Origin: a virus
Lineage: Duplodnaviria > Heunggongvirae > Uroviricota > Caudoviricetes
Length of the DNA: 43,512 bases
Strand: one strand, 5' to 3'
IMG/VR virus record: IMGVR_UViG_2563366800_000009
Coordinates: 1-43,512 of that record
A model generated the notes under the pieces. The model was not told the origin of the DNA. It searched no databases and saw only the letters and a list, made by a program, of their open reading frames with translations. Each line of letters starts with the position of its first letter. Position 1 is the first letter of the stretch. Positions 1,009 through 43,512 of this stretch are shown piece by piece. A program made the position numbers and the translations under genes.

Positions 1009-1083
1009 GTCCTCTTAGTTAAATGGATATAACGAGCCCCTCCTAAGGGCTAATTGCAGGTTCGATTCCTGCAGGGGACACCA
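1009..1083 (+). tRNA. argW: tRNA-Arg (anticodon CCU); prophage integration site (attL side)
   Basis: 75-nt cloverleaf read by eye: acceptor GTCCTCT/AGGGGAC, anticodon loop CTCCTAA, T-arm GGTTCGATTCC, discriminator A plus CCA. Confidence 0.9.
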
Positions 1084-1199
1084 TTTATCAGTTCGCTCCC
1101 ATCCGTACCAGTCCGCAAAATCCCCTGAATATCAAGCCTTCCGTATATTCACGGTTCGTCATGGTTCGCGTCAGATCGTTGACAGCCGCACTCCATGAC

Positions 1200-1244
1200 G
1201 GGTAAAAAGTGGATAAAATAATTTTACCCACCGGATTTTTACCC
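1200..1244 (+). promoter_or_regulatory. Repeat cluster directly upstream of intS: GGGTAAAAA (1200-1208) inverted relative to direct copies TTTTACCC (1222-1229) and TTTTTACCC (1236-1244); candidate recombination-protein binding sites or intS control region
   Basis: Repeats seen in sequence; last copy abuts the intS ATG. Confidence 0.4.
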
Positions 1245-2402
1245 ATGCTCACCGTTAAGCAGATTGAAGCAGCAAAGCCGAAAGAAAAACCATACCGCCT
1301 TCTCGATGGTAATGGCCTGTACCTTTATGTTCCTGTATCCGGGAAAAAGGTATGGCAGCTTCGCTACAAGATTGACGGTAAGGAGAAAATCCTGACCGTC
1401 GGAAAATATCCGCTTATGACTTTGCAGGAAGCAAGGGATAAGGCATGGACTGCGAGGAAAGACATCTCGGTTGGCATCGATCCGGTAAAGGCGAAAAAGG
1501 CTTCGTCTAACAACAATTCATTTAGTGCGATTTACAAGGAATGGTACGAGCACAAGAAGCAAGTCTGGTCAGTAGGCTATGCAACTGAACTTGCCAAAAT
1601 GTTTGATGACGACATTTTACCCATCATCGGCGGTCTTGAGATTCAGGATATTGAGCCGATGCAACTGCTGGAAGTAATCCGCAGATTTGAAGATCGCGGT
1701 GCAATGGAACGAGCCAATAAAGCCCGCAGAAGATGCGGCGAGGTTTTCCGTTACGCTATTGTCACCGGCAGGGCTAAATATAACCCGGCACCTGACCTTG
1801 CTGACGCCATGAAAGGATACCGCAAGAAGAACTTCCCGTTTCTTCCTGCCGACCAGATCCCGGCATTCAACAAAGCACTGGCAACATTTTCAGGAAGTAT
1901 CGTATCGCTCATTGCTACCAAAATTTTACGCTACACCGCCCTAAGAACGAAAGAGCTTCGTTCCATGCAATGGAAGAACGTCGATTTTGAAAACAGGATT
2001 ATCACCATCGACGCCAGTGTGATGAAGGGACGCAAAATTCATGTGGTCCCGATGTCAGACCAGGTGGTTGAACTTCTCACTACGCTAAGCTCCATCACTA
2101 AACCAGTATCAGAGTTTGTTTTTGCCGGGCGCAACGATAAGAAGAAGCCGATCTGCGAGAACGCGGTGCTGCTTGTGATCAAACAAATCGGCTATGAAGG
2201 TCTGGAAAGCGGTCACGGATTCAGGCATGAATTCAGCACGATTATGAACGAGCACGAATGGCCTGCTGACGCTATTGAAGTGCAACTGGCACATGCCAAC
2301 GGCGGATCTGTGCGTGGGATTTACAACCATGCTCAGTATCTCGATAAGCGCAGAGAAATGATGCAGTGGTGGGCGGATTATCTCGATGAGAGGGTGGCAT
2401 AG
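1245..2402 (+). CDS. intS: Tyrosine integrase IntS (P4-like family), 385 aa
   Basis: Protein begins MLTVKQIEAAKPKEKPYRLLDGNGLYLYVP, recognised as KplE1 IntS; ORF track extends it upstream to a GTG at 1209 but the ATG at 1245 gives the known 385-aa length; adjacent to tRNA. Confidence 0.9.
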   Translation: MLTVKQIEAAKPKEKPYRLLDGNGLYLYVPVSGKKVWQLRYKIDGKEKILTVGKYPLMTLQEARDKAWTARKDISVGIDPVKAKKASSNNNSFSAIYKEWYEHKKQVWSVGYATELAKMFDDDILPIIGGLEIQDIEPMQLLEVIRRFEDRGAMERANKARRRCGEVFRYAIVTGRAKYNPAPDLADAMKGYRKKNFPFLPADQIPAFNKALATFSGSIVSLIATKILRYTALRTKELRSMQWKNVDFENRIITIDASVMKGRKIHVVPMSDQVVELLTTLSSITKPVSEFVFAGRNDKKKPICENAVLLVIKQIGYEGLESGHGFRHEFSTIMNEHEWPADAIEVQLAHANGGSVRGIYNHAQYLDKRREMMQWWADYLDERVA

Positions 2403-2645
2403 CGCCACCTATAAACCGTGCAATAATCAAACTCACATGCGCATCGTTGATGATGTATGTGATCACCACAAATATCACATCTGGACTAGTTCCGTCTTCA
2501 TGCGTAGGTATCTGTTCACGCCTCCATTTCTGCAAATCCTAAAGATGAGGTTTTGGGATATCTTTTTATCCTCAGTTCTCTATCCATTCTACAAAGCAGT
2601 AATGAACCATCACAGTGTGATAGTGAGACATCCGCTACGTTAATT

Positions 2646-2671
2646 GCAGAGAAATGATGCAATGGTGGGCG
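2646..2671 (+). repeat. Degenerate duplicate of the intS 3' end (compare 2350-2375); integrase C-terminus remnant
   Basis: 26 bp with one mismatch to 2350-2375; would encode REMMQWWA as at the IntS C-terminus. Confidence 0.6.
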
Positions 2672-2742
2672 AACTGGTTACCATGCAAAACATCATGTCT
2701 TATAACGTAAATAATTATAGCTTCATTATATAAAGCCATTAT

Positions 2743-4695
2743 CTAACGAAGCCATTGGCTTGGTTTTTGTTTCAGTATATGTATCGCCCCTTGACCGGAA
2801 GCTGCCTGTTGTGCAGTTGCTAGCGTCACTATGTAGGTATTCCCTACTGTTCTTGGTTGAGTAAGGTTAAACTGCAGCGGTGAAGTATCACAGGATATGT
2901 ATTCTATTCCTGAATCAGAAGTCACCTGAAATTCAGTATATAATACACTACCGGAAGAGATAGAAATGTGAATTGCTATCTCACCTCCAGTGTATACAAA
3001 AGGTATACTTGGCATATTTGAAAAATCCTTAAAGTTAAGCATTGACGATGAACTAATAACCTCTTTGCCTACGTCATTAGTAAGTTGAACCGGTTTAGTG
3101 TAATCATAAGCCAGTAGAACGTAATAGTTTACAAAATTTACAAAACTTGAAGACGCCTTTGAAGAGCTATGCCATGTTTTTTTATTGTCCACACGGTATA
3201 TGGATTGGATGTTTAGAAACTCACTTGCCGTTGCTCTTTGCAGTATACCAGTACCTATGCCAAAATGGATATTACCAACGTCAAACACGTGGTCCTCGAC
3301 ATTTCCTGTAGTTGATAATATCGCGATATCAGGCTCTGCACTATCTTCAAGCGCTTCACTGCATTTTTCAAAGTACATAGAACCAACAGACCAACTAACA
3401 GCGTTAACAGTAGCTAAACCAGCGCCTGCTGTGGTTTCAGCTATTAATGTTCCTATTCTTGATGCCAATCCTTGCCCGAGAGTGACACCGGCACCTATGA
3501 GCTGTGGGGTTAAAGATGATGAATACGGATCATACCCATAGGACAAAGATTTTGATGTGTTATACGCAGCGACGACACCAAATTCAACACCATTAACGTT
3601 TACGTCTCCGGTTTCACCGGAGAAACCATGTGCCAAAGAGACACCTCTTGCACAATCAATTCCCATATATTGATTTACTTTATGATACCAACTCCCAAGA
3701 AGTACAATTCCAACTTCTGTGGCATTATAAGCATATATAATGTCTGTGACAGATTCTGCAACTACACCAAAACCATAAAAACCGTAAGGCGCAACATTGT
3801 TAGCATCAATATTTAATGTACCAATGTGCCTAATTCCACGAACTTGTTGTTCAGGCAATGAAAGATCCGGGGATGTTCCTACTGGTTTTTTGCTGGCGCG
3901 AACTACAGCCTTTCCACCCCATGAATAGCCACTCATCGCTTTAATAGTTGCGCCGTTTGTTTCCATCACTAAATACGATGGGATAACAACTTCATCGCTA
4001 ACAAAATATGTACAACCAGGCGTTAACTCAATAAACCCTGTTTTAATTGCCATGTTAATTGCATTTAAACAATCACTTTCAGAATAAGGTTTGGCGCCGA
4101 AGTTCTCTGGGGTGTTTAAGTTAAACCCATTAAGTAGTCCAACGCATATCCAATTATCATCTGGATGGCTTCCAGCATCAACATCATAACCGCCTTCTAC
4201 TATATCTTTCCTGGCATAAAAATACATGTTTCCATCAGGATCGTTATCATAAAGAACAGCATAGCGCTCATCATCAATATGTCCACCTGATGAAAAACTA
4301 ATATCAGACTTAAAATAGAAGTTAAGTCTGAAATGATTTTTTGCCCATACAGAAAATTGATCAGGATCATACTTCAGCACATTCGGAAAATAGAACTGCT
4401 GCGCCCCATACGCATCATAAACAGCCATAGAATGGCCCTGTACAGTAACGAATTTGGCAATCTGTCCGTTATATACCGGATATCCAGCAGCGTTAATGAT
4501 GATTGGCTGCGAAACAGGAACGTGAGAGCCGTCTTCGTTCTCCACATAAACCTGAATCTGGTTTTCAGGATTTACCGGGTCAGTGTCAATTTTACCGATA
4601 TAAATTTTGCCATTGGCAACCGCTTTAAAAGAACGCGCCATAGTGAAGAGTTGCGAAGGCATTGATACGATCACATTGGCTGTAATGTCTGTCAT
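2743..4695 (-). CDS. Tailspike protein; P22-type N-terminal head-binding domain with divergent receptor-binding/enzymatic domain
   Basis: N-terminus [34 protein letters not shown]...[13 protein letters not shown] matches the conserved P22/Sf6/HK620 tailspike head-binding domain; the rest is distinct. Confidence 0.85.
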
Positions 4696-4751
4696 TTAAT
4701 TTGCTCCAGATACAAGGAATCACCGAAGCATGGCTACGATGAATTTTGGGC

Positions 4752-4777
4752 ATAAAAAAACCCAGCCGAAGCTGGGT
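4752..4777 (-). terminator. Rho-independent terminator between ant and tailspike gene
   Basis: Hairpin CCCAGC-TTCG-GCTGGG followed by a T-run on the minus strand. Confidence 0.55.
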
Positions 4778-4795: not shown

Positions 4796-5674
4796 TCAGT
4801 AGTTATGTACTGAAGGAGGTAATTCTTTATTCTTAAGTCTCATCCATGCGGAAAGATTCGCTGGTCCGTCTGGCTCATTGATATCAACATCTCGTGTGTG
4901 ATTGATTAAAACGTCTCTCGCCATTCCGATAACATACGAGAATTCATGACCGTAGTCGTAGCATCTGCCGGAATAGTTCGATTGAACTTGTTTTAATGCC
5001 GGATACAGTTCGCGGAATAATGCCTGTGAACGGTTAGCATAATCCCATAGCCATACAAGGCTGTTTGCTTCTTTTGCAGAAAGCTCGTTTGCTTTCTTCT
5101 CTTGTTTGCCGATAAACTCGCCTTCAAGCACTACCCTGTGGATGTACTCTACGGCCAGCGGGATTTGTTCAATTGAAAGTTCATCAATGCTGTCAATACC
5201 AAAACGCTGATGAACCATATTGTATGCATCGTCATAGCGAAGTCCTTTCTTTCCTACCAGCATGTTTACTGCATCGCGTAGCGGCGTTCTTTCCTCAACA
5301 GTGGTTTTCTTGCCTTTCACATACTCGCCATGTTTGCGAATTGAAGGTAGAACTTCTGCTGTTACCCACTTGCGGAATTTGTGCGGGACCGAACCTTTAT
5401 TGACAGCATCGCGGCAGCGCAGAACCAATGTATACATACCTGATTCGCTAACAATGCTTAGATTCTGCTCACCACCAAGGGTGTAACTTAAAGTTACTCC
5501 CTTTTCATCGTCATCAAGTGCAGTAAGCGCCTTGCGTGAGTTAGTCAGGGTTAAAGCATCACAAACATCTTTTGCTACAAACCACGGCTCACCGCATTTG
5601 TTGATGACGCGGATTTCACTGTCGCCGAATTTGAAGATGGTGAAATCGTTTTGTGCCTTTGCTATACTTTTCAT
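4796..5674 (-). CDS. ant: Antirepressor Ant (BRO-N plus antirepressor C-terminal domain)
   Basis: Position downstream of arc as in P22 immI; ATG at 5674 has an AGGAAA RBS; ORF-track start at 5740 is a TTG. Confidence 0.7.
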
Positions 5675-5736
5675 GTCAATATTTCCTAATCCGATTTGTT
5701 GATACCGAAGCCCTGACTGTTCCCGCAGTTGGGGCT

Positions 5737-5910
5737 TCAACTTTTTGCTAGATTACCTTTAGAACTATCCCGCCTTAAACTATCCACTAACCGCATTACC
5801 ATCTCGGTATTTATTGAGCGACCATTTTCTTTCGCTGACTTCTCGATTGCTAACTTAACCTCTAATGGGATGCGCAAAGGGTACTTTGGTGCGTCTGACT
5901 TGACTATCAT
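5737..5910 (-). CDS. arc: Arc-like ribbon-helix-helix repressor
   Basis: [35 protein letters not shown] resembles P22 Arc; GGAGG RBS before the ATG at 5910. Confidence 0.7.
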
Positions 5911-5928
5911 ATTACCTCCAATCAATTT

Positions 5929-5998: not shown

Positions 5999-6235
5999 AT
6001 GTCACGCGAAGAGCCGCAAATAAATATCAGGATTTCCAAAGAGTTAAAGGCAAAGGTTAAAGCCAGGGCGCAACATAACAAGCGTTCCATGAATGCTGAA
6101 ATAATACAGATTATCGAAGATGCTGTTTGTGGTAGATCGCTTAATAGCAATGAATTTGCTCAGAAAGAGGCTGACAAATTCAGGGATGCGCTGATTGAAA
6201 CACTGAAAACCATGTATGGTAAGGATGCAAAATGA
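5999..6235 (+). CDS. mnt: Mnt-like ribbon-helix-helix repressor
   Basis: N-terminus PQINIRISKELKAKVKARAQHNKRSMNAEIIQIIEDA resembles P22 Mnt; divergent from arc-ant. Confidence 0.7.
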   Translation: MSREEPQINIRISKELKAKVKARAQHNKRSMNAEIIQIIEDAVCGRSLNSNEFAQKEADKFRDALIETLKTMYGKDAK

Positions 6236-6441
6236 ATAAAAAACAGTTTATTAAGTCAAAAACATCAAGCAAGGAAGAGCTAGAGAAAGAGCTAAACTCC
6301 CTGAAATATGCTCTGTGTCTGGTTTACTCAAGACTGCCAATGGAAGATAAAAACGCTATTTACAATGAAATGATTAGCAGCCTTGATTTTAACGATAGAG
6401 ACCTAGCATCCCACCTCAACAGCTTCCGCGTCCCTGAGTAA
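6232..6441 (+). CDS. Hypothetical 69-aa protein, translationally coupled to mnt
   Basis: ATGA start/stop overlap with mnt; AT-rich. Confidence 0.5.
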   Translation: MNKKQFIKSKTSSKEELEKELNSLKYALCLVYSRLPMEDKNAIYNEMISSLDFNDRDLASHLNSFRVPE

Positions 6442-6601
6442 TTCTGTTGCGGATTTGCTTCTTGCGGTGGTTTAGGCTGGAGAGCTTGGCTTCTGCTTCC
6501 GATATTTGCGCATCCAGATCTTTAAGTTCAAGATCTGAAAGTCGCTGGTCAAGCAGGGTTTGATTCAACTCGATGTTGTTCAGGCGTTCTTCTATGGTCA
6601 T
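6416..6601 (-). CDS. Hypothetical 61-aa coiled-coil ORF convergent with and overlapping the 69-aa ORF
   Basis: Heptad-like sequence MTIEERLNNIELNQTLLDQRLSDLELKDLDAQ; no clear RBS. Confidence 0.3.
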   Translation of the reverse strand: MTIEERLNNIELNQTLLDQRLSDLELKDLDAQISEAEAKLSSLNHRKKQIRNRITQGRGSC

Positions 6602-6626
6602 ATTGTTACCTTAGTGGGAGGTTGGC

Positions 6627-6983
6627 GTGAATGGTCAAACAATCATCATAATATTACTGAGCTTAATAGTTGCTAAGTTATATCCCCAAATCGGTTATAT
6701 TTCCCTAGTTGTCTGTACCTTGGTGGTCTTGGTATACGGGATATATAAAGTTTTTTCTTGGCTATTGCGTTTTAATGCTGCAAGAAAAACTATTTGGATC
6801 ATATTATTAGCAGCTATTGCAGCAACACCAGTGGGAATAGGGTATATCATAGATATTTTTTACCCTTCAAAAACAAAGGCATGGGTCATCGTCATTTGCT
6901 TTTACATCGCAGGTGTTTTTTTATTTGCTTTTCATTGGTGCTTTGTAAAGATTAATGAATACATATCAAGGGAAAAAAACTAA
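6627..6983 (+). CDS. Small integral membrane protein (about 4 TM helices) at the P22 sieA position; candidate superinfection-exclusion protein
   Basis: GTG start with GGGAGG RBS; strongly hydrophobic; visibly AT-rich; between mnt and the end of the late operon. Confidence 0.6.
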   Translation: MNGQTIIIILLSLIVAKLYPQIGYISLVVCTLVVLVYGIYKVFSWLLRFNAARKTIWIILLAAIAATPVGIGYIIDIFYPSKTKAWVIVICFYIAGVFLFAFHWCFVKINEYISREKN

Positions 6984-7006: not shown

Positions 7007-8755
7007 TCACTGCTGTGTTGCCTCAGTGGCAAGCAGCGGTCTGATGGCATTTGCAGCGTTACTTAATGCTCTTTCATAGGCTGGCGTTCCTGCCTTGGTG
7101 TTTGCCAGACGTAAGAGAGCATTCCTAGCCATAGGGCTTTCATAAACCCTCGACATAAGGCCAATCCCTGTTTCCCCAGCCAATAGCGCGCCTCCGGTTT
7201 TTAGGTTACCAATAACCCTTACCAAAGGCGCGAGTGTCATGCCAGTCTTCGTCACAACATTAGCCTCAGATGCTCTTTTGGTAGCATCGAGAATAGATAA
7301 CATCCCCTCTATCTCTTTTCCGTTCTTCCCACCAAATACAGTTTTAAACACCTGACCATTTGCTTGTTTTTGCAGCTTGCCAAGCTCGGTCATCATTTTC
7401 TGAGGGCTGTCACCTACCTTGTCAGCTATTTTGCTGATATATGCCGCCCTTAGCATGTCTTTACCTTTTTGATCGAGTTTCCCGTACAATCGAGCTATAT
7501 CTGACCCATATTGTCCATACACAATGGTATTTACAGCCTCGGGAGTTAAATCTCCTTTGTTTAGAACGTTTTTAAGGCGCGTTTGAGTTACATGTGTTGC
7601 CATTTTTGCATAATCAGCTTTTCCCGCTCTCCATGCTGAAGCATCTTTTGGGCTAAGTCCTTTCGCTATAGATTTACTAAGGCTATTGGTTAGCGAGTTA
7701 TAGACCCTGTCGACCATTGTTTGCGACATTGATGGCAGAACTGTACGATCGCCTTTTACGTCAATGCGGAACTGAGTTCTCAGCTTATCAAGTAACTCAA
7801 AGGCATCATCTCCATTTGTTATCTCCTGAATGGCATTCTTATAATCATTAAGCGCAGAAATGGTCTGGGTGTCAGAAACACCTTTAAGTTTCCCAAGTTC
7901 GTTTACTGCTCCGTCGATAGCTCTTATGGCGCCACTTGTATCAACTGGCTTTCCAACCATTCTTCCTGACAGGCTGTTTAGTTTTGACTTGGCTAACGAT
8001 TTTTCCCTTGCAACGCCTGACTTTAGACTATCAACGACTACAGATGGATCGTAGTCGCCGTATTTTTCGGTGAAGCGATTAACAAGCTTGGTTCTGGCAT
8101 CCTGCTGTGCGGCTCTCATTGGTCCAGTACCAGCTATGACTCCTTCTGAGTAACCCTGCAGTTGATTGCCAAGTTTTGTTTTTGGAGGAACTACATCCGA
8201 TGTCATAACTGGTACATCTGCCGCAGCGGCACGCTTGAGCAATTGCTGATCTGCTGGTGATATTTCGCCACGAACAGCAGTAATTCCACGCCCTATTCCC
8301 TTTGCTGCTGCGGAAAGAACCCCCTGAGCGGCAAGGTTAACTCCGGCGTTTCTTGCTGCATTTTGTGCGAAATCGCCTTTCTGATTTGCGGCCTCTGCCA
8401 GTGATCCAATAGCCATACTTCCTGCCGTTCCAACTCCTGGAACTAAATACCCGCCAATTGTTTCTCCAGCTTGAGCGTAGGAGTCTGTCGGTCTGTCTAC
8501 TGGACGATAGACATCATCCAATACTTTTGGCCCGCCTAACCCCTGACTAATAGCGTTAATCAGGCTTGCACCGCCCTGCAGCACATCGAACGGAATGTTT
8601 ACCAGGCCGCGACCGGCCTGCTCTGCGCTCTGCAACAGAGACTGCTCTTGCGGTTGAGCTGGCTGCTCATCAAACTGATCAAAGAAGTTACCCTCTGCCG
8701 CTGGAGTTTCCGGTTGAGGGATGGCTTCATCAAATTGGTCGAAGAAATTCGCCAT
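7007..8755 (-). CDS. Ejection (E) protein, P22 gp16-like
   Basis: 582 aa; size and position at the end of the late operon match P22 gene 16. Confidence 0.7.
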   Translation of the reverse strand: MANFFDQFDEAIPQPETPAAEGNFFDQFDEQPAQPQEQSLLQSAEQAGRGLVNIPFDVLQGGASLINAISQGLGGPKVLDDVYRPVDRPTDSYAQAGETIGGYLVPGVGTAGSMAIGSLAEAANQKGDFAQNAARNAGVNLAAQGVLSAAAKGIGRGITAVRGEISPADQQLLKRAAAADVPVMTSDVVPPKTKLGNQLQGYSEGVIAGTGPMRAAQQDARTKLVNRFTEKYGDYDPSVVVDSLKSGVAREKSLAKSKLNSLSGRMVGKPVDTSGAIRAIDGAVNELGKLKGVSDTQTISALNDYKNAIQEITNGDDAFELLDKLRTQFRIDVKGDRTVLPSMSQTMVDRVYNSLTNSLSKSIAKGLSPKDASAWRAGKADYAKMATHVTQTRLKNVLNKGDLTPEAVNTIVYGQYGSDIARLYGKLDQKGKDMLRAAYISKIADKVGDSPQKMMTELGKLQKQANGQVFKTVFGGKNGKEIEGMLSILDATKRASEANVVTKTGMTLAPLVRVIGNLKTGGALLAGETGIGLMSRVYESPMARNALLRLANTKAGTPAYERALSNAANAIRPLLATEATQQ

Positions 8756-34233: not shown

Positions 34234-34250
34234 TCACGCAAGGGGCGATT

Positions 34251-34792: not shown

Positions 34793-34838
34793 TTAGCCAT
34801 CAGCAGGACGCTGGAAGCCAAACGGAACAGATTGGCAG

Positions 34839-34879
34839 GCTCTTTAACATTGATGGGATTGTCCCGCCGAAATGCGGGA
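34839..34879 (+). promoter_or_regulatory. nutL site: boxA GCTCTTTAACA then boxB hairpin TCCCGCCGAAATGCGGGA
   Basis: Same boxA/boxB as nutR in opposite orientation, upstream of the N gene. Confidence 0.6.
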
Positions 34880-34986
34880 ACCAAAGAGTAGTTGGCTTTG
34901 GGGTGGCGTGAAGTGCAGCTGCACGACGGCAACCGGAAGATAAGCACCCGGCGCGTCACCGCCAAAGTCAATCATCGGAGGTCAAC

Positions 34987-35295: not shown

Positions 35296-35484
35296 ATGCA
35301 TAAATGTCAGTTCTGTGGATACATGTTTGAATCAAATGAAATGCAACGTATTTCGTTAAACCTTATCGGTAGGCCATACAACATTTGCCTAGGATGTAGC
35401 GAGAAATACAAAAACAAAGACATGTGGGACGACAATAAAAACGATATCGACTGGAATAAAGTGCCATGTATTGATGATAGTTAA
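35296..35484 (+). CDS. Hypothetical zinc-ribbon-like small protein (62 aa)
   Basis: CQFCG...CLGC motif; GAGGGGTGAG RBS. Confidence 0.5.
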   Translation: MHKCQFCGYMFESNEMQRISLNLIGRPYNICLGCSEKYKNKDMWDDNKNDIDWNKVPCIDDS

Positions 35485-35494
35485 AAATAATTAT

Positions 35495-35567
35495 GCCGCA
35501 TAGTCGGCCTTCTTTTGGCATAAACAACAGAATAAACACTGCACTGAATTATTTGAGGTGAGATATG
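35495..35567 (+). repeat. 73-bp direct repeat, copy 1 (ends with RBS and ATG of the downstream gene)
   Basis: Identical to 36021-36093. Confidence 0.85.
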
Positions 35568-36014
35568 GAAGAACAAGCAAACAAGATTCTCGTAGAACTA
35601 CTGCAAAAAGCCAGTAATGGAATAGACGCGGCTGTTTCATTTAGCCAGGCACAGATTCCTGATGTTGTTCATCAGTTGCTGCTATGGAATATGGTTGACA
35701 GTCTGATTAAAACATTAATGGCCATTCTAACAATCCCACTGGTTTTCTGGTTTATGAAGAAGCAGTGCCAAAGAGTTGAGACAGGTAAAATCGGTGATGA
35801 AGGATATTCATGGGAGAAAGGAAATCCCAAATACAGGCCGACAATGGTTTGGGATAGCAAAGGTGATATTAATCTTCTTATCATGCCATTGGTTGTAGTT
35901 TTGACTCTGTGGGGGATTTTTATTATTGGTGTAGTAACCAATATGACTTGGTTAAAAATTTGGCTGGCCCCAAAGCTTTACCTTATCGAATATGCAGCAT
36001 CATTGGTTAAGTAA
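35565..36014 (+). CDS. Membrane protein (2 TM helices) in the pL operon at the sieB-like position; candidate exclusion protein
   Basis: 149 aa; flanked by perfect 73-bp direct repeats; AT-rich. Confidence 0.6.
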   Translation: MEEQANKILVELLQKASNGIDAAVSFSQAQIPDVVHQLLLWNMVDSLIKTLMAILTIPLVFWFMKKQCQRVETGKIGDEGYSWEKGNPKYRPTMVWDSKGDINLLIMPLVVVLTLWGIFIIGVVTNMTWLKIWLAPKLYLIEYAASLVK

Positions 36015-36020
36015 TTTCAG

Positions 36021-36093
36021 GCCGCATAGTCGGCCTTCTTTTGGCATAAACAACAGAATAAACACTGCACTGAATTATTTGAGGTGAGATATG
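36021..36093 (+). repeat. 73-bp direct repeat, copy 2
   Basis: Identical to 35495-35567. Confidence 0.85.
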
Positions 36094-36561
36094 ACAAAAT
36101 CATGGAGCGTACCTTTTCCTGAATCAGAAACTGAACATGATGGAATGCCTGTTTTCTGGAGATTCCAAGCGACAGTTGAAGAAGATGGAATCAAAATATT
36201 CGCACTTCAATATATAGCTTTTCATCAGACAGAGCATTATGCATGGTTGGTTCCTGCGCATTGGATTGTTAATTTTAAACCAGCACCAAATCAGTGGTTA
36301 CAGGAATGGAAACAAAGGAGAAATAGATATGCAATTAAGAAAGTAGCAAAAAATGCAGAAAGATCTTTTGCGTTCCCGACGAAGAAACTTGCCATTGAAA
36401 GTTTATTGCGCCGGAAGAAATACCATTTGATGAGAATCAAACAAGATTTGGCTGTTGTATCAACTCTTGTTGATGGGATGAAGAATATTGATACATCAAC
36501 ACCAGATATTGAATATAACTTTGGACACAACCAAGAAACAGAAAATTGGGTGTTTTATTAG
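36091..36561 (+). CDS. Hypothetical 156-aa protein
   Basis: Start supplied by repeat copy 2; no recognisable motif. Confidence 0.55.
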   Translation: MTKSWSVPFPESETEHDGMPVFWRFQATVEEDGIKIFALQYIAFHQTEHYAWLVPAHWIVNFKPAPNQWLQEWKQRRNRYAIKKVAKNAERSFAFPTKKLAIESLLRRKKYHLMRIKQDLAVVSTLVDGMKNIDTSTPDIEYNFGHNQETENWVFY

Positions 36562-36704
36562 TATGAATAAGCACTGTGTATTCATTCCAACGAGTGAATA
36601 CACGGAGCAATGTCGCTCGTAACTAAACAGGAGCCGACTTGTTCTGATTATTGGAAATCTTCTTTGCCCTCCGATGTGAGGGCGATTTTTTTGATGGAGG
36701 ATAT

Positions 36705-37673
36705 ATGAGTGAAGTAACAGATTTAGTTGTTATTGAAAAAGCAAATGCAATGACTGTATTTCAGTCTGCCGACCAGATTGAAGAAATCCTTCAAAAGGTT
36801 GAACGTGAAGTTATGTCCTTTGTGCCTGATATCACAACGGCAAAGGGCAGAAAGGAGATCGCTTCTCTGGCGTATAAAGTTGCGCAGACGAAAACATATC
36901 TCGATGGTCTTGGAAAAGACCTTGTTGCTGAACTGAAGGAAATTCCAAAGCTAATTGATGCCAACCGCAAGACAGTGCGTGATCGCCTTGATGAGCTGAA
37001 ATCCAAGGCACGCCAGCCTCTTACTGATTATGAGGAGGAACAGGCACGGATTAAAGCCGAAGAAGAAGCTAAGGCAGCAGCTGAAGCTCTCGCAAAGCAA
37101 ATTGAGTCTGACCATGAAATAGCTATTTTGATGGATCGCGAATTTGACCGCCAAAGAGAAGAGGCAAGACTCAAAGCGGAGCAGGAAAAGCGAGAGCATG
37201 AAGAACGCTTAAAAAGAGAAGCTGAAGAGAAAGCCAGAGCAGAAGCCGAAGCAAAGGCAAAAGCCGAAATTGAAGCAGCAGCAAGGCGAGAAGCAGAAGC
37301 TAAGGCCGCAGCGGAACGTGCAGAGCGTGAACGCATTGAAGCCGAGCAACGAGCACAGCGCGAAGCAAAAGAGGCAGCAGAACGAGCTGAAAGAGAAAAG
37401 CAGGCGGCAATTGAAGCAGAACGCCGAAAAGCACAGGAGGAGGCTGAACGAATCCGGCGCGAGGCTGAAGCAAAAGAGCAAGCCAGAATAGCAGAAGAAA
37501 AAAGAATCAAGGACGAAGAAGAGCGTAGAGCAAAGGATAAAGCTCACCGGAAAGAAGTAAATAACAAAATACTTGCTGACCTTATCAAGGTTGGCGCATC
37601 AGAAGATGTTGCTAAAAATATCATAACAGCCATCGTAAAAGGCAAAGTATTCGCAACAAAAATAACCTACTAA
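36705..37673 (+). CDS. Coiled-coil protein with long Ala/Glu/Lys/Arg-rich low-complexity region (TolA-like repeats)
   Basis: GGAGG RBS before ATG 36705; about 150 aa of EAKAKAE/AERAERE-type repeats. Confidence 0.55.
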   Translation: MSEVTDLVVIEKANAMTVFQSADQIEEILQKVEREVMSFVPDITTAKGRKEIASLAYKVAQTKTYLDGLGKDLVAELKEIPKLIDANRKTVRDRLDELKSKARQPLTDYEEEQARIKAEEEAKAAAEALAKQIESDHEIAILMDREFDRQREEARLKAEQEKREHEERLKREAEEKARAEAEAKAKAEIEAAARREAEAKAAAERAERERIEAEQRAQREAKEAAERAEREKQAAIEAERRKAQEEAERIRREAEAKEQARIAEEKRIKDEEERRAKDKAHRKEVNNKILADLIKVGASEDVAKNIITAIVKGKVFATKITY

Positions 37674-37697
37674 TAAAACCAACATAAGGAACCACCC

Positions 37698-37844
37698 ATG
37701 ATTTACGCAATCGCGGGAGGCGCTCGCATGGGTGCCTTCCAATTAAATGAATCTTTACTTGAACGAATCACCCGTAAATTACGTGACGGATGGAAACGAC
37801 TCATCGACGTACTTAATCAGCCAGGAGTTCCAAAAAATGGATAA
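37698..37844 (+). CDS. cIII: CIII (FtsH inhibitor stabilising CII), 48 aa
   Basis: Not in ORF track; ...ESLLERITRKLRDGWKRLIDVLNQPGVPKNG resembles lambda CIII. Confidence 0.8.
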   Translation: MIYAIAGGARMGAFQLNESLLERITRKLRDGWKRLIDVLNQPGVPKNG

Positions 37845-37950
37845 AACACTTATGGCTATTCAGACTAAATTCACTATCGCCACTTTTATTGGCGATGAAA
37901 AGATGTTTCGTGAGGCCGTCGAAGCCTACAGAAAATGGAGGTCTAAATGA
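37837..37950 (+). CDS. Small protein (37 aa) immediately after cIII; Kil-like by position
   Basis: Overlaps cIII stop; called by synteny only. Confidence 0.4.
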   Translation: MDKTLMAIQTKFTIATFIGDEKMFREAVEAYRKWRSK

Positions 37951-38135
37951 TTCCGGTAGAGCTGGCGAAAACTCCAGAGTTAAGTCGATTAAAAAGAGAA
38001 TATCACATTGCTGAGGCTCGTTACTGGCGTAAAGCGGGAGATAAATCAAAGAAACAACTTTGTTTATGGCAAGCGCAAAGAGAGCGCATGAATGAGCGCG
38101 AATTTCTTTCCGCCCCATCCGAATTACCATTCTGA
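37947..38135 (+). CDS. Hypothetical 62-aa protein
   Basis: ATGA overlap with upstream ORF. Confidence 0.4.
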   Translation: MIPVELAKTPELSRLKREYHIAEARYWRKAGDKSKKQLCLWQAQRERMNEREFLSAPSELPF

Positions 38136-38143
38136 GGTGAATT

Positions 38144-38824
38144 ATGGGAACTGCGACATTAATACTCGGTGAGTCTGGCACCGGAAAATCAACCAGCATG
38201 AGAAATATCAATCCAGAGGAAGCAATACTTATAAAACCAATAGGCAAGCCGCTACCATTTAAATCAAAAGAATGGCTGGCATGGGATGCCAGAGCAAAAA
38301 AAGGAACCGTAGTTACCACTGACAAATGGGACGTAATAGTTTCCGTAATTAAGCGTGCTCACGAATACGGGAAAAGAATCGTTATTGTTGATGACTTCCA
38401 GTATGTGATGAGCAATGAGTTTATGCGCCGCTCAGAAGAAAAATCGTTTGATAAATTTACTGAGATAGGCCGCCACGCATGGGAGGTGATTAAGGCTGCA
38501 CAGGATGCACCTGATGACCTGAGAGTCTATTTTCTTGCGCACACCGAAGAAACCCCTATGGGGCGCGTGAAAATGAAAACTATCGGCAAAATGCTGGACG
38601 AGAAAATCACTGTCGAAGGCATGTTTACTATAGTTCTTCGCACTCTTACCCGCGATGACCAGTTCTTTTTCACCACGAAAAACAACGGTGCAGACACTGT
38701 TAAATCCCCAATGGGAATGTTTGATTCCAATGAGATTGATAACGATCTCTCTTTCGTCGATGCCACTGTTTGTGATTACTACGGCATCAATAATGTTCAT
38801 CAAATTAAGGAAAACGCCGCATGA
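38144..38824 (+). CDS. P-loop ATPase, RecA-core-like (Sak4-type recombination ATPase)
   Basis: Walker A GESGTGKST and Walker B IVIVDD. Confidence 0.65.
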   Translation: MGTATLILGESGTGKSTSMRNINPEEAILIKPIGKPLPFKSKEWLAWDARAKKGTVVTTDKWDVIVSVIKRAHEYGKRIVIVDDFQYVMSNEFMRRSEEKSFDKFTEIGRHAWEVIKAAQDAPDDLRVYFLAHTEETPMGRVKMKTIGKMLDEKITVEGMFTIVLRTLTRDDQFFFTTKNNGADTVKSPMGMFDSNEIDNDLSFVDATVCDYYGINNVHQIKENAA

Positions 38825-39408
38825 GCAACGTGATTTTTACTTATAACGAAGAAGCAGCACTGACCGCAGGGCAAGGTGGTTTTATTAACGAAACTGGCGC
38901 TCATATCATTACCATTACTGAAGCAGAACTAAAGCAATCAGAAAAAGGAGCCAAATTTATTGAGTTTTCTGGCGAATCCGACGACGGACGTAAAATCCAA
39001 TATCTTAGCGTCTGTGTTCAGAAAAATGACGGAACGGAAAACAAATTTGGCGCAAATGTCGTTCACGCCATGATGGGGTGTGCCGGGATTGGACAATTAA
39101 CGCAGCATATGGTTTCCGCCAGTAAATTTGTTGCACCTGAATTTCATGGAAAGAAAATCGGGTTAGTGCTTCAGAAAGTATTAACCACAAACAAAAAGAC
39201 TGGCGCAGACAGCTACCAGATGGAAATACGCATCCCGTTTATTGCACAAACAGGTAAAACCCTTAAAGAAAAGGCAGAAGGCAAGCAACCAGAAACTATC
39301 GCCAACATGGTTGCCAATCTCAAAGATAAAGACAATCGCTCTAAAAACGTAAGCCAGAATCATGCAGATGATTATGGTTACAGCCAGAACGATTACCCTC
39401 CTTTCTGA
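38821..39408 (+). CDS. Putative ssDNA-binding protein partner of the ATPase; acidic C-terminal tail ending DYPPF
   Basis: C-terminal tail resembles the SSB DDDIPF-type tip; coupled to the ATPase gene. Confidence 0.45.
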   Translation: MSNVIFTYNEEAALTAGQGGFINETGAHIITITEAELKQSEKGAKFIEFSGESDDGRKIQYLSVCVQKNDGTENKFGANVVHAMMGCAGIGQLTQHMVSASKFVAPEFHGKKIGLVLQKVLTTNKKTGADSYQMEIRIPFIAQTGKTLKEKAEGKQPETIANMVANLKDKDNRSKNVSQNHADDYGYSQNDYPPF

Positions 39409-39431
39409 TTACTGAAAATAAGGCTCCCATT

Positions 39432-39728
39432 ATGCCAGCGCCTCTGTATGGTGCGGATGACCCGCGCAATTGCTCCGGTAGCTCCAAGGCGGAGGTGCTG
39501 GAAAATATCAAAAACATTTTCGACACGTTTATCGATCTGCCACCAGAAACAAAAGCAGAACGGATGTACCGACGCGATATACAACTCGCGTTAAAAGATG
39601 AGAAGGACCGAACAAACGAAACAGCAATGAGACCGTTGCGAAAAGCGACAATAGACAAATTCCCTGAATATATCGACCCGCGCCTGCGTAATTACCGCTC
39701 ACGCTATGGCGCTATCAGTAATGACTGA
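39432..39728 (+). CDS. Hypothetical 98-aa protein
   Basis: ORF in early-left region. Confidence 0.45.
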
Positions 39729-39903
39729 GGAATTTACCATGAGAGGGCTTGCATACAATCCCGGCATTCTTCCGGCAGAAATGATTATTCGCCAACGCGT
39801 AAAGCCAATGCCATCGAGAGAGGAATTGCTTAAGAGAAATTCTTTTCCGTCAGTAAATCAAAACAAATATCTGAATGCGATGTTGCGGAGTGGGAAAAAA
39901 TGA
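39706..39903 (+). CDS. Hypothetical small protein (likely starts at ATG 39739)
   Basis: GAGGAA RBS before 39739. Confidence 0.4.
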
Positions 39904-40361
39904 AACAAATGTCACTAATTGAGATGGATGGATTTCTGAAAGGTAAATGCATTCCAAGTGATTTAAAGGTTAACGAAACAAACGCTGAATATCTTGTCCG
40001 TAAGTTCGGTGAACTTGAATCAAAACTGGAAACGGCGTTGCGGGAGTGTCGTTCTGCTGGAATCACGATTGATAACCTTGAGGCTAAATGCGCGAAGATG
40101 GCTGCTGAAAATACCTCGCTTAAGCAATCTGAGAAGGAATTTAATGACTTTTGTCGTGAGGAGTTTAGCGAATGGGAAGATGATGTTACTGAAACCCAAG
40201 CCACCGACGCTTTCCTGGCTGAAATTGAACGCAAAGCAATCCGCAAGTTCATTAACAGCATTGAACACATCCTGCGTGACAAGCTGTCTCCGTATGACAC
40301 CGAAGAGATGCTTGAGGCTATGCGTATTTTTCTGGAAGAACAGGAAGGTGAGCAAAAATGA
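39900..40361 (+). CDS. Hypothetical 153-aa protein sharing the ATDAFLAE motif with Ea22-like proteins
   Basis: Motif [15 protein letters not shown]. Confidence 0.5.
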
Positions 40362-40663
40362 CGATCACAAAACAACGTGTAGAAGAAATCATATCCCGTA
40401 TTGAAATGTATGGGCATGGTGCCGGGTATACCGCTGATGAGGTTTATGACCTTGCTGTACTGGCGCTGAATTTATCAAATATCGCAAAACTCAAGCGATA
40501 CGAGCTTGATATGGATGGTTGTGACTCGTTCGGTCAGGATTGTGGCGCTGACATGACTGAAGATTCTGATGGCGATTATGTCCTGTTTGATGACGTAGTT
40601 AAGTTGTTTGAGTTTGATACATTCGAAAGCCCAGCAAAGGAGGCAACCAGTGAGCAAGATTGA
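40358..40663 (+). CDS. Hypothetical acidic 101-aa protein
   Basis: ORF overlapping neighbours. Confidence 0.45.
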   Translation: MTITKQRVEEIISRIEMYGHGAGYTADEVYDLAVLALNLSNIAKLKRYELDMDGCDSFGQDCGADMTEDSDGDYVLFDDVVKLFEFDTFESPAKEATSEQD

Positions 40664-41447
40664 CTATCAGGCACTGCGTGAAAAGGCAGAGAAAGCAACT
40701 AAAGGAAGCTACATCGTAGGGCATACATCTGTTAACCAGCACGGCAATTTAACAGGAGTTTTTGTTTGTCAAAAATGGAAAGGAGAGCCAGGTGGCGTGA
40801 TTGCAGAATGTCACGTTAACTGCCTGGTTGAAACAGATGCTCAGGCTTATGCAAACGCTGAATTTATTGCTGCCTTTAATCCAAATGTTGCGCTGGCACT
40901 ACTGGATGAACGAGATGCATTAAATGAACGCCTAGCCGAACTGGAGGCTGATTTAGCAGGGCTGGCCGAAGACCACCAGAAAGCGACTGAGTCAATTAAG
41001 CAGGCTGATGCAGCTGTTAAGTTGGCACACGAGAAGTTTTCGGCGCTGGCGGCGGAGAATGCGGGGCTGAAAGACACTCTATCAGCAGTGATTGACCGCA
41101 GTAACGAGCCTGATTATCAAAGCATCGGAATGGGCTGTGGTGTTGAGGATAACGGTCTTCAGACTGACGGTTATAACGCCTGTGAATATGGATGGCGCGA
41201 AGCAATGGATCGCATTTACTCAGAAGTTATTCCAGACACTATTCCTGAAACCCCGGCGACAGACGCCTTCCTGGCTGAAGTGCGGGCGCATGACCTCAAC
41301 GCTTTCATTCGGCATCACAGTGCAGAACTGGATGCGCATATTAAAAACGGTGGTGAGCAGTTCGACGAAAAATCAGTACGCATCAGAGACATCATCGTCT
41401 CAGCCCGCTTGTTCAGGGAGCAGATTCGCAAGGAGGCCGCCCAATGA
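40653..41447 (+). CDS. Ea22-like protein
   Basis: GTG start with AAGGAGG RBS; coiled coil; [17 protein letters not shown] motif. Confidence 0.6.
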   Translation, partial: SKIDYQALREKAEKATKGSYIVGHTSVNQHGNLTGVFVCQKWKGEPGGVIAECHVNCLVETDAQAYANAEFIAAFNPNVALALLDERDALNERLAELEADLAGLAEDHQKATESIKQADAAVKLAHEKFSALAAENAGLKDTLSAVIDRSNEPDYQSIGMGCGVEDNGLQTDGYNACEYGWREAMDRIYSEVIPDTIPETPATDAFLAEVRAHDLNAFIRHHSAELDAHIKNGGEQFDEKSVRIRDIIVSARLFREQIRKEAAQ

Positions 41448-41821
41448 GCAACATCGACAAACAGGCGCTGCGTGAAATCGCAGCGGCAGCAGTTGGCGCA
41501 CATGAGCGCCTTAGTGTTATGCCGCCTGATGACATTTTCGATATCTCACTGGCAGAAGGAACTCAGCTTGATGCAGATATCACTGCCTTGAACGCGCTGA
41601 ACTCCGCAGCCAACCCCGCCACCGTGCTGGCGCTGCTGGATGAGCTGGAAGCCGCAGAGAAGCGAATCGCTGAACTGGAAGCGAAGCTCGATAGCGCAGA
41701 TAAATTGCAAGATAGCGCATTTCGTCATGGTCTTCAGCATGGCTTCAGTTTTGGTCAAACGGATAATCAGGCTGGATTTGAAGAGTGCTTATCTGCCTAT
41801 GGCACCGGTAAAGGAGAGTGA
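41444..41821 (+). CDS. Ea22-like N-terminal paralog (125 aa)
   Basis: N-terminus DKQALREIAAAA parallels the KIDYQALREKAEKA of the preceding gene. Confidence 0.5.
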   Translation: MSNIDKQALREIAAAAVGAHERLSVMPPDDIFDISLAEGTQLDADITALNALNSAANPATVLALLDELEAAEKRIAELEAKLDSADKLQDSAFRHGLQHGFSFGQTDNQAGFEECLSAYGTGKGE

Positions 41822-42096
41822 ATGTGAAAAATTATCTCAGCAATTTAGCCAGCATGCTTCAGGGGATTGCAGGTGTCATTTCAGACGGCGAGCGGGTGCA
41901 GAAAGAGTGCCCTGCGCACTTAAAGTCAGCACTACTCGAGGCTTCTCACGCGCTAGATGGTCAATCGGTCAGGGTCAATTATCCGCCTAATGGAAAGCCT
42001 GAAATTGTTAATGCCCGCGGACACCATCGACCGCTTACCTTCCGGGAACGAGTGGCAATCCGCTTACTTGGTGGCAGGACGGAGATTCGCCCATGA
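41818..42096 (+). CDS. Hypothetical 92-aa protein
   Basis: ORF, GTG start. Confidence 0.4.
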   Translation: MNVKNYLSNLASMLQGIAGVISDGERVQKECPAHLKSALLEASHALDGQSVRVNYPPNGKPEIVNARGHHRPLTFRERVAIRLLGGRTEIRP

Positions 42097-42899
42097 GCAC
42101 TATTACCAGAGAACTGGCAAAGCTGTTCAGAAAAATTACGAATTCTGAAATTGATGCGGAGGGTAACGCTCATGTTGTTTTATCTCCTGCTGATAGCCTC
42201 CTGATTAATAATGCGCGTATCGCGCTGGCATCGCTCGAAGCGGAGCCTGTGGCGTGGGCGCACAGATTAATCAACAAGCGTAACGGAGTCGTTCACCCTT
42301 GGGTTTACGGTAGCGCAGAGGCGTGTCCAAGCGAGGGGGATATCTTCAATATTGAGGTAATGCCGCTCTACACCGTCCCTCCAGCGCCGGTATCTGTGCC
42401 CGCTGCGATGGAAATTGATGATGACTTTGACAGCGCGTTTGAACACGGAAAAGCTGTCGGCTGGAACGCCTATCGCGCCGCCATGCTTCAGGCCGAACCT
42501 GTAAGTAATAGTGATGAGTTACCGCTGGACTATCTGCAAGGACACAAAGACGGCCTGGAGTGGGCTGCACAATTGGCAGAAGCCAATCATCCGCAAACAG
42601 GTGACTGGTTGTACGACGACCAAATCGATCTTGCCAGGGCGATTCGCAAAGGTCCGGATATGCCTACTGTTCAGGGTGGCAACTCTCCGGTGATTCCGGA
42701 TGGTTGGATTCCAGTAAGCGAGCGGATGCCAGGCTCACAAGAGTGGGTAATCGTGTTCGCTAAATGGGATAATCAGCAGGTCTTGTGCTGGGATGATGTG
42801 GCAAATCGCTGGACAGATTTTGAAGACCAATCCTACTACGCCTATATGTTCACCCACTGGATGCCGCTGCCAGAACCGCCGGAGCAGGATGGTGAATGA
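42093..42899 (+). CDS. DUF551-domain protein
   Basis: C-terminal WIPVSERMPG...THWMPLPEPP typical of DUF551. Confidence 0.55.
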   Translation: MSTITRELAKLFRKITNSEIDAEGNAHVVLSPADSLLINNARIALASLEAEPVAWAHRLINKRNGVVHPWVYGSAEACPSEGDIFNIEVMPLYTVPPAPVSVPAAMEIDDDFDSAFEHGKAVGWNAYRAAMLQAEPVSNSDELPLDYLQGHKDGLEWAAQLAEANHPQTGDWLYDDQIDLARAIRKGPDMPTVQGGNSPVIPDGWIPVSERMPGSQEWVIVFAKWDNQQVLCWDDVANRWTDFEDQSYYAYMFTHWMPLPEPPEQDGE

Positions 42900-42985
42900 T
42901 GCCGCCAGTTAAAGTTGTGATTATCACTTTGGTGATGATAGTGATTGCGAGAATCATGTCTGGTGAAATTGGGTGGATATGGTAA
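42896..42985 (+). CDS. Small hydrophobic peptide (29 aa)
   Basis: ATGA overlap with DUF551 gene; single TM-like stretch. Confidence 0.3.
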   Translation: MMPPVKVVIITLVMIVIARIMSGEIGWIW

Positions 42986-43018
42986 TGGCTAAGGCAGCAG
43001 CAGAGCGCAACTAACAAT

Positions 43019-43045
43019 CCTCGCACTCGCGGGGATTTCTTTTAT
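43019..43045 (+). terminator. Putative rho-independent terminator
   Basis: Hairpin CCTCGC-ACTC-GCGGGG followed by a T-rich run. Confidence 0.4.
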
Positions 43046-43086
43046 CTGAACTCGCTACGGCGGGTTTTGTTTTATGGAGATGATAA

Positions 43087-43254
43087 ATGCACTTCCGAGT
43101 TACAGGTGAATGGAATGGAGAACCATTCAACAGGGTTATCGAAGCAGAGGACATCAACGACTGCTATAACCACTGGATGATATGGGCGCAGATAGCACAT
43201 GCAGACGTAACCAATATTCGAATTGAAGAACTGAAAGAACACAAAGCCGCCTGA
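43087..43254 (+). CDS. ypdJ: YpdJ-like small protein (55 aa)
   Basis: GGAG RBS; sits immediately upstream of torI as ypdJ does in KplE1. Confidence 0.45.
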   Translation: MHFRVTGEWNGEPFNRVIEAEDINDCYNHWMIWAQIAHADVTNIRIEELKEHKAA

Positions 43255-43268
43255 TGGCGGTTTTTTAT
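43246..43268 (+). terminator. Rho-independent terminator
   Basis: CCGCC-TGAT-GGCGG hairpin followed by TTTTTTATT. Confidence 0.6.
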
Positions 43269-43276
43269 TGCCTGAT

Positions 43277-43292
43277 TTGCAGGTTCGATTCC
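43277..43292 (+). other. 16-bp exact copy of the argW T-arm segment (TTGCAGGTTCGATTCC; compare 1054-1069); att-core-like element upstream of torI
   Basis: Exact 16-bp identity seen in sequence. Confidence 0.5.
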
Positions 43293-43311
43293 CTATTCGG
43301 AGATAGCACTC

Positions 43312-43512
43312 ATGCAACACGAACTACAGCCTGATTCACTGGTTGATTTGAAATTCATCATGGCCGATACTGGCTTCGGTAAAACCTTCATCTATGACCG
43401 GATTAAGTCCGGCGACCTGCCAAAAGCCAAAGTTATCCACGGGCGAGCAAGATGGTTATATCGTGACCATTGTGAATTCAAAAATAAGCTCTTAAGCCGC
43501 GCCAATGGGTAA
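43312..43512 (+). CDS. torI: Recombination directionality factor (excisionase) TorI
   Basis: MQHELQPDSLVDLKFIMADTGFGKTFIYDRIKSGDLPKAKVIHGRARWLYRDHCEFKNKLL, recognised as KplE1 TorI; the window ends at its stop codon. Confidence 0.85.
   Translation: MQHELQPDSLVDLKFIMADTGFGKTFIYDRIKSGDLPKAKVIHGRARWLYRDHCEFKNKLLSRANG

Follow-up and report, generated by a model that had tools for sequence, protein, structure and literature searches.

Does the DNA downstream of argW in the virus record IMGVR_UViG_2563366800_000009 hold a complete phage, or a remnant of the kind found at the same tRNA gene in E. coli K-12 (KplE1/CPS-53)? The whole record, 43,512 bp in length, was analysed here and will be referred to as the window. 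It appears to contain a temperate podovirus of the P22 type (Lederbergvirus), mosaic and structurally intact, located in the 3′ end of argW by means of the IntS/TorI recombination module. We assign a probability of about 0.85 to this reading. The prophage is likely to be inducible, and the odds that it can produce infective virions are somewhat better than even. For the analysis, 73 candidate open reading frames (ORFs), including three within an insertion sequence (IS), were translated and compared with the complete genomes of phages HK620, IME10, Sf6 and P22, and with the K-12 locus.

The left end of the prophage can be placed exactly. The host gene yfdC (positions 1–933, plus strand) lies to its left and is not part of it. 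The YfdC protein is 100% identical to that of K-12, and the flank from 1 to 1068 matches K-12 at 1067 of 1068 nucleotides. The left end is therefore at the yfdC-argW locus of K-12. The argW gene itself, a tRNA-Arg(CCT) gene found with the program ARAGORN (1009–1083, plus strand), is 100% identical to K-12 argW. Its 3′ end (1069–1083) is supplied by the phage, with the tRNA restored to the K-12 sequence. The core of the left attachment site (attL), CTGCAGGGGACACCAT (1069–1084, 16 bp), is located at this 3′ end. It matches the annotated core of the phage attachment site (attP) of HK620 at all 16 positions, and is also identical to the attL core of K-12 and the attP core of Sf6. Position 1069 is the exact start of homology with HK620, Sf6 and IME10, and in the alignment it corresponds to the end of the annotated attP core in both HK620 (1368–1383) and Sf6 (18099–18114).

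The attL arm (1085–1244, plus strand) has the same layout as in K-12, with TorI-site motifs, IntS arm-type sites and the intS promoter in matching positions. The site motifs were defined after Panis et al. 2010 (PMC2951348). There are five TorI-site motifs (GTTCG at 1091, 1154 and 1164, GTCCG at 1111, and GATCG at 1174), and the IntS arm-type TAAA sites are located at 1199–1245. The intS promoter overlaps both the five TorI sites and the arm-type sites. The arm is identical to that of K-12 KplE1 at 171 of 176 positions, and the attP repeats and excision promoter of HK620 find a 100% match in it. The intS gene adjoins attL (1245–2402, plus strand) and encodes a tyrosine integrase of 385 residues, 380 of which are identical to K-12 IntS (381 of 386 positions with the stop codon counted); five residues differ. 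In the protein comparison, the integrase is 98% identical to those of HK620 and Sf6. It has the Pfam domains Arm-DNA-bind_3, Phage_int_M and Phage_integrase, corresponding to the arm-binding, central and catalytic regions.

At the other end, the last gene of the prophage is torI, for the excisionase (43312–43512, plus strand). Its product is 100% identical to K-12 TorI, HK620 HkaC, Sf6 gp18 and the IME10 protein. The pI promoter with its cII site (43267–43305, plus strand) precedes torI and matches HK620 at 39 of 39 positions for pI and 13 of 13 for the cII site. The window ends at the stop codon of torI, and the right attachment site (attR) is located beyond it. Among 5,426 complete E. coli genomes in RefSeq, none had a match to as much as 80% of either half of the window. 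An exact-protein look-up found a contig, KE137202.1 (GCA_000408625.1), that is 100% identical to the window over the last 11,420 nucleotides of the window and extends past it. In this contig, a perfect copy of the same 16-bp core CTGCAGGGGACACCAT is located 74 nucleotides past torI. It is followed by dsdC-dsdX-dsdA, and this right host flank matches K-12 at 1090 of 1091 nucleotides. The distance from the attL core to the attR core is 42,517 bp. Since only the identical contig, outside the window, shows attR, the completeness of the right end depends on that contig and not on the window by itself.

The original prediction, made from the DNA of the window, had proposed an apparently complete prophage of the P22 kind in argW, with IntS on the argW side and TorI at the opposite end. 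The attL core, the full-length gene set (see below), the attR core in the identical contig and the positions of intS and torI all bear this out. The interval proposed for the prophage, 1009–43512, has to be revised, however. The host tRNA gene begins at 1009 and the prophage at 1069, while 43512 is the edge of the window and the end of the torI stop codon, with attR outside.

All 13 virion genes are located on the minus strand between positions 2743 and 20712, in the order 3-2-1-8-5-4-10-26-14-7-20-16-(immI)-9. Their products are full length and are 52–100% identical to proteins of P22, IME10, HK620 or Sf6. The head proteins are closest to those of IME10. TerL (gp2, 18747–20246), the scaffold (gp8, 15656–16567) and the coat (gp5, 14361–15656) are each 99% identical to their IME10 counterparts over the full length, and the portal (gp1, 16581–18746) is 97% identical, also over the full length. 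For gp4 (13614–14177) the identity to IME10 is 98%. With P22, the identities of coat, scaffold, portal and TerL are between 73% (coat) and 92% (TerL). The protein comparison gave no match for coat and TerL in HK620, and none for coat in Sf6.

The remaining virion proteins come from more varied relatives. Gp10 (12196–13614) is 99% identical to HK620 and Sf6 and 98% to IME10, the tail needle gp26 (11348–12196) is 97% identical to that of Sf6, and gp14 (10893–11348) has identities of 97–98%. Among the ejection proteins, gp7 (10198–10890) is 100% identical to HK620 gp7 and gp20 (8766–10187) is 84% identical to HK620 gp20. The third, gp16 (7007–8755), is 52% identical to P22 gp16 and matches phrog_770 to the end of the profile. 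The small terminase TerS (gp3, 20224–20712) is 87% identical to that of P22. The 22-mer in its gene that is equivalent to the P22 pac site agrees with it at 15 of 22 positions (manual count), and the surrounding residues differ too. This suggests that TerS carries a pac specificity allele different from that of P22. Headful (pac) packaging of the P22 type is predicted from the P22-type TerS and TerL.

The lambdoid early region is present as well. It has cI and cro with divergent pL and pR, N with nut sites, O/P-type replication genes, the nin region, Q and the lysis genes. The immunity region (32829–35292) contains cII, nutR, cro, OR1-3, cI, an hkaS-like gene, OL1-3/pL, nutL and N. CI (33517–34233, plus strand) and cII are 100% identical to their HK620 counterparts, and Cro is 98% identical. 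OL1-3, OR1-3, pL, nutL, nutR and pRE are 100% identical to the sites annotated in HK620. The pR promoter matches at 35 of 36 positions, and the base that differs is downstream of OR1. CI has Pfam domains HTH_3 and Peptidase_S24, as expected of a RecA-cleavable, LexA-like repressor. The replication block (30330–32794, minus strand) includes O (31756–32646; 99% identical to Sf6 and IME10), P (30330–31781), a DnaB-like helicase that is 99% identical to those of HK620, Sf6 and IME10, and a gp42-like ORF. The ori iterons within O (32166–32261) match those of Sf6 at 91 of 96 positions. Late control is provided by Q (24458–24946, minus strand; Pfam Phage_antitermQ) and the adjoining tR′/qut/pR′ segment (24368–24457, minus strand), in which tR′ is identical to that of Sf6 at 45 of 45 positions. 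The whole Q-pR′-qut-tR′ module (24368–24946) is 97.1% identical to phage 21 over its full length.

The regulators occur together with the sites on which they act. HK620-type cI, Cro, N and cII are found with HK620 operators, nut sites, pRE and pI, Sf6-type O with Sf6-type ori iterons, and phage-21-type Q with its own pR′/qut/tR′. Since the regulators are paired with their cognate sites, the pattern is that expected of a working mosaic phage and not of a decaying one.

Inactivating lesions in the essential genes were sought, and every essential protein was found to be full length in comparison with the isolated phages IME10, P22, HK620 and Sf6. A full lambdoid and P22-type gene set with one IS66 insertion as the sole visible lesion, as originally predicted, is thus confirmed for all the virion, lysis, replication and regulatory proteins. 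The label of P22/Sf6-like has to be refined, as the head genes are of the P22/IME10 type and not of the Sf6 type (the coat is 99% identical to that of IME10, with no match in Sf6).

With this set of genes and sites, the prophage would be expected to follow the course of a temperate lambdoid phage. In the lysogen, cI would repress pL and pR. Once RecA is activated by the SOS response, it would cleave this LexA-like repressor, and transcription from pL, antiterminated by N, would reach torI. TorI, IntS and IHF would then recombine attL and attR to give a circle of 42.5 kb. The circle would be replicated by O and P, Q would turn on the late genes, and the P22-type terminase would package headfuls of the DNA.

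The only interruption of the prophage is a copy of ISEc22, a member of the IS66 family (27642–30082, minus strand; 2,441 bp). It has the same orientation as the pR operon and is located in the interval from P to ninB. The element has three ORFs, for TnpA, TnpB and TnpC (133, 115 and 512 residues, respectively). Its inverted repeats start with GTAAGCG (22 nucleotides, 86% complementary), and it is flanked by an 8-bp target duplication, ATTTCATC, at 27634–27641 and 30083–30090. The insertion is at the 3′ end of a nin ORF of 83 residues (30079–30330, minus strand). The last five or so codons of this ORF are replaced by the end of the IS, and its stop codon is inside the IS inverted repeat. The ORF covers positions 1–83 of the 89 in phrog_2239.

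When the IS and one copy of the repeat are removed, the rebuilt empty site is 99.5% identical to uninterrupted prophages across the junction. The IS is 100% identical to copies annotated as ISEc22 in the chromosomes and plasmids of many other E. coli. With an IS identical to other copies and a target allele that differs elsewhere by only 0.5%, the insertion is therefore recent and there has been little time for decay. By these features ISEc22 is best described as a simple, recent insertion without deletion. It increases the length of the prophage from 40,068 bp to 42,517 bp.

Several observations weigh against an intact and productive prophage. The case is drawn from the sequence, and missense lesions are possible. 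The attR site and its arm are outside the window. In KE137202.1, the attR arm (11421–11509) is identical to that of KplE1 at 86 of 89 positions, and the three T-to-C changes affect bases that do not vary among K-12, HK620 and Sf6. A scan of IMG/VR for an attP junction with this attR-arm variant gave 0 matches, which is weak negative evidence, and a control scan with the generic attP junction gave 10 contigs of 25.2–41.5 kb (9 of the 10 at 38.3–41.5 kb). At 42,517 bp, the prophage exceeds all 10 of these free genomes. The headful of P22 is 43,400 ± 750 bp (PMC8402733). If the capsid capacity is that of P22, an assumption made for a coat that is only 73% identical to P22 coat, the terminal redundancy would be only about 0.9 kb (about 2%), compared to 1.7 kb in P22. 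Only one transcript reaches Q. ISEc22 is positioned in it between P and Q and may be polar on Q expression. Moreover, the small terminase and the pac allele are only 80–88% identical to phages among the matches listed.

These points can be combined into an alternative, that the prophage looks intact yet is functionally defective and at best excises or lyses without infective particles. The proposed causes are too little Q due to ISEc22 polarity, too little redundancy to circularise, the attR-arm substitutions, or missense mutations, which are also the main risks to virion production if the prophage is intact. We consider such a defect unlikely, though far from negligible. The essential proteins are not only full length but nearly identical to those of isolated phages. 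N and nutR are identical to HK620, and antitermination should therefore take RNA polymerase across the element. A consensus-match scan of ISEc22 on the strand of the pR operon detected nothing resembling an intrinsic terminator, with rho-dependent polarity outside the reach of such a scan. The recent date of the insertion also speaks against accumulated damage. Lambda can do without its nin region. A copy of IS911 in the Sf6 nin region leaves that phage viable, but at a cost, as loss of the IS speeds the Sf6 life cycle (PMC5630979). By analogy, ISEc22 in the non-essential nin region probably slows growth of the phage but does not block it. Deposited P22-like records of 42.4–42.9 kb exist, and the genome size is a handicap and not a knock-out.

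The data are very hard to reconcile with a chimeric assembly or with two elements in tandem, and these readings are given almost no weight. The mosaicism relative to any single reference phage is strong, but it is normal for lambdoid phages, as the annotations of Sf6 and HK620 illustrate, and the megablast map of the window is the usual lambdoid patchwork. There is one complete, non-redundant gene set in the canonical P22 order. The 16-bp cores are present only at the two ends, and both host flanks are 99.9% identical to K-12 (1067 of 1068 and 1090 of 1091 nucleotides).

The chances are about even that the prophage is viable despite the IS, as a P22-type headful phage with an active-looking ISEc22 at about 98% of the capsid capacity. 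The P22-type group is known for generalized transduction. If viable, the phage would be a route for the phage-borne spread of an IS66-family element, and it would also be a natural test of minimal terminal redundancy (about 0.9 kb) in a P22-like phage.

The original prediction described the prophage as an intact counterpart of KplE1. This is correct for the recombination module, comprising attL, intS, torI and attR. The two share the argW site and the 16-bp core, and they are nearly identical in the attL arm (171/176), IntS (380/385) and TorI (100%). In the identical contig, the attR arm agrees with that of KplE1 at 86 of 89 positions, with three substitutions. The two are hardly the intact and decayed states of one phage lineage, as the interior of KplE1 is unrelated to the prophage. 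KplE1 is a 10.2-kb remnant without immunity, replication, lysis or head genes. A tblastx comparison of its 8.6-kb interior (yfdG-ypdJ) with the window found only a 40-residue stretch of YfdS, and KplE1 as a decayed relative was rejected on this result. KplE1 also carries gtrABS-like and tail-fibre-assembly genes (tfaS, yfdK). P22-like podoviruses are not known to carry tail-fibre-assembly or gtrABS-like genes of the KplE1 kind. A single lineage is therefore improbable. The argW locus in this strain holds a probably active Lederbergvirus prophage instead of a KplE1-type remnant, which is relevant to phage release, transduction and O-antigen-specific host range.

Close relatives of the prophage are found among isolated phages. 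The comparison with Sf6, HK620 and K-12 KplE1 suggested in the original prediction was carried out, and the attachment core, IntS and TorI are shared with all three. HK620 (Lederbergvirus HK620; Clark et al. 2001, cited in PMC3509656) has the same attP core and left arm, int, torI (hkaC) and pI promoter with its cII site. The two are also alike in the immunity region (cI, cII, Cro, operators and nut sites), the Sak4-like and HkaK recombination genes, most of the nin genes, gp7, gp10 and gp14. On the other hand, the head genes of HK620 are of the Sf6 type and its Q is lambda-like, compared to the P22/IME10-type head and phage-21-type Q here. The tailspike receptor domain and the tail needle also differ. 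HK620 has a wzy-like conversion gene next to int, no IS and a genome of 38.3 kb, compared to 42.5 kb here.

IME10 (NC_019501) has the closest virion module, as described above for coat, scaffold, TerL, portal and gp4. Its integrase (98%), TorI (100%), P and O (both 99%) are similar as well. The differences are in the immunity region, Q, the tail needle, gp20, gp16 and the tailspike receptor domain. In addition, the recombination gene of IME10 is Erf whereas that of the prophage is Sak4-like, and there is no IS in IME10.

Sf6 shares the attP core and the argW target, IntS (98%), TorI (100%), O and ori, the tail needle (97%), the Q type with tRNA-Asn and tRNA-Thr, the lysis genes and the presence of an insertion sequence in the nin region. 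However, the IS of Sf6 is IS911 (IS3 family), located inside ninG and transcribed against the late genes, while ISEc22 is oriented with the pR operon. Sf6 also has Sf6-type head genes and the conversion gene oac.

According to the published account, Kapi1 is a further P22-like temperate phage in argW, with int and xis at opposite ends of the prophage (PMC8787464). Its attP is the core of Sf6, HK620 and KplE1 with one extra 5′ A, and its induction by mitomycin C was shown to be recA-dependent (PMC8787464). Kapi1 modifies the O-antigen, whereas the prophage is without a recognisable conversion gene.

The suggestion that the prophage would offer a natural system in which to study how IntS and TorI recombine the DNA of an active phage is not sustained, as this role is already filled by HK620, Sf6, CUS-3 and Kapi1 (PMC2951348, PMC3509656, PMC8787464). 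Panis et al. reported 100% identity of TorI with HK620 HkaC and with Sf6 P18, and the presence of the module in the active phages CUS-3, HK620 and Sf6 as well as in prophages of APEC-O1 and UTI89 (PMC3509656, PMC2951348). HK620 substrates were used in recombination and directionality assays (PMC3509656, PMC2951348). The public records of HK620, Sf6 and IME10 already label the genes as IntS and TorI. With active phages that carry the module already published, the novelty is therefore low, and the prophage is one more mosaic member with no new biology. Substrates from KplE1 and HK620 have already served to work out the IntS/TorI biology, and the value of the present analysis is mostly in annotation. 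Only two features are mildly instructive, the IS-inflated genome near the headful limit and a tailspike module in common with a virulent myovirus.

A different arrangement at argW was observed in contig ABIEMM010000022.1 of GCA_025162315.1 (11687–19278). There, the torI end of a related prophage is followed by a further integrase and not by dsdC. Beyond this integrase are an AlpA-like gene and primase-like Toprim genes, and the element looks like a satellite or an island. With a further integrase past torI, the argW locus is therefore able to hold tandem mobile elements.

The lysis cassette (22751–23968, minus strand) consists of the holin (23645–23968), the endolysin (23185–23661) and Rz (22751–23188), which are 96–100% identical to those of IME10, Sf6 and HK620. 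The lipoprotein Rz1 is embedded in Rz on the same strand, and its ORF (within 22804–23019) is intact. Directly downstream of tR′ is a pair of phage tRNA genes found with ARAGORN, tRNA-Thr(TGT) and tRNA-Asn(GTT) (24211–24366, minus strand), and this pair is also found at the equivalent place in Sf6. On the other side of Q, the nin region (24943–27551, minus strand) contains ninH, rusA, a ybcO-like gene, a 70-residue ORF, ninF, ninE, ninB and three small ORFs. The named nin genes are 95–100% identical to HK620, and the small nin ORFs have PHROG matches.

The early-left operon (35296–43254, plus strand) contains accessory ORFs, cIII/kil, a Sak4-like gene, an HkaK-like gene, Abc2, Ead/Ea22-like genes and DUF551. 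The recombination genes for the Sak4-like ATPase (38144–38824) and the HkaK-like protein (38821–39408) encode products that are 98–100% identical to HK620 HkaL and HkaK. The first three ORFs after N (35296–36561, plus strand; 62, 149 and 156 residues) have PHROG matches that carry no assigned function, and they gave no PADLOC match. Directly downstream of cI (34230–34619, plus strand) is a homolog (98%) of HK620 HkaS, a small membrane protein. This gene is probably expressed in the lysogen.

The immI region separates gene 16 from the tailspike gene. It contains ant (4796–5740, minus strand), whose product is 54% identical to P22 Ant over the full length and has Pfam domains Bro-N and P22_AR_C. 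Next to it are arc (5737–5925, minus strand) and an mnt-like gene (5999–6235, plus strand), both with the Pfam Arc domain. Three accessory ORFs are found at the position of P22 sieA (6232–6983), with 69 (plus strand), 61 (minus strand) and 118 residues (plus strand). The first two match phrog_16466 and phrog_7586. The third (6627–6983) is a predicted multi-pass membrane protein located between gene 16 and mnt, in the position and orientation of P22 sieA, and by this analogy it may be a superinfection-exclusion protein. It has no PHROG or Pfam family match and no significant PADLOC match. Overall, PADLOC found no significant defence system among ten accessory ORFs (at the sieA position, downstream of cI, in the early-left operon and after gene 3), and the Pfam matches of the accessory ORFs were limited to a KilA-N domain and a weak one to AAA.

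The spacer between intS and the tailspike gene is 340 bp (2403–2742), and no recognisable O-antigen conversion gene is located in it. At this position Sf6 has oac, HK620 has the wzy-like gene and P22 has gtrABC. A second int has left 40 bp of its 3′ end in the spacer as a relic (2638–2677, plus strand), 90% identical to K-12 intS at 3643–3682, which is probably a scar from the loss or replacement of a conversion-type module. An 85-residue ORF at 2386–2643 was considered as a gene and rejected. None of the five reference sequences contains a homolog of this ORF. It overlaps the int stop codon and lies in the convergent-terminator spacer, and it was treated as non-coding.

The tailspike (gene 9, 2743–4695, minus strand; 650 residues) combines two parts with different relatives. 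Residues 1–113 form a P22-type head-binding domain (Pfam Head_binding, E = 5.6e-67). Residues 124–650 are 84% identical, through the last residue, to a tail spike of vB_EcoM_UP17, a phage of 152 kb, and also 84% identical to one of Dompiswa phage TSP7_1. The rest of the phage collection gave only distant (30–40%) full-domain matches to this receptor part. The comparison points to an exchange of the receptor module of the tailspike between temperate podoviruses and large lytic phages, here a virulent myovirus. At a coverage of at least 80%, the tailspike gene is present in 1 of 5,426 complete E. coli genomes, that of strain T43.

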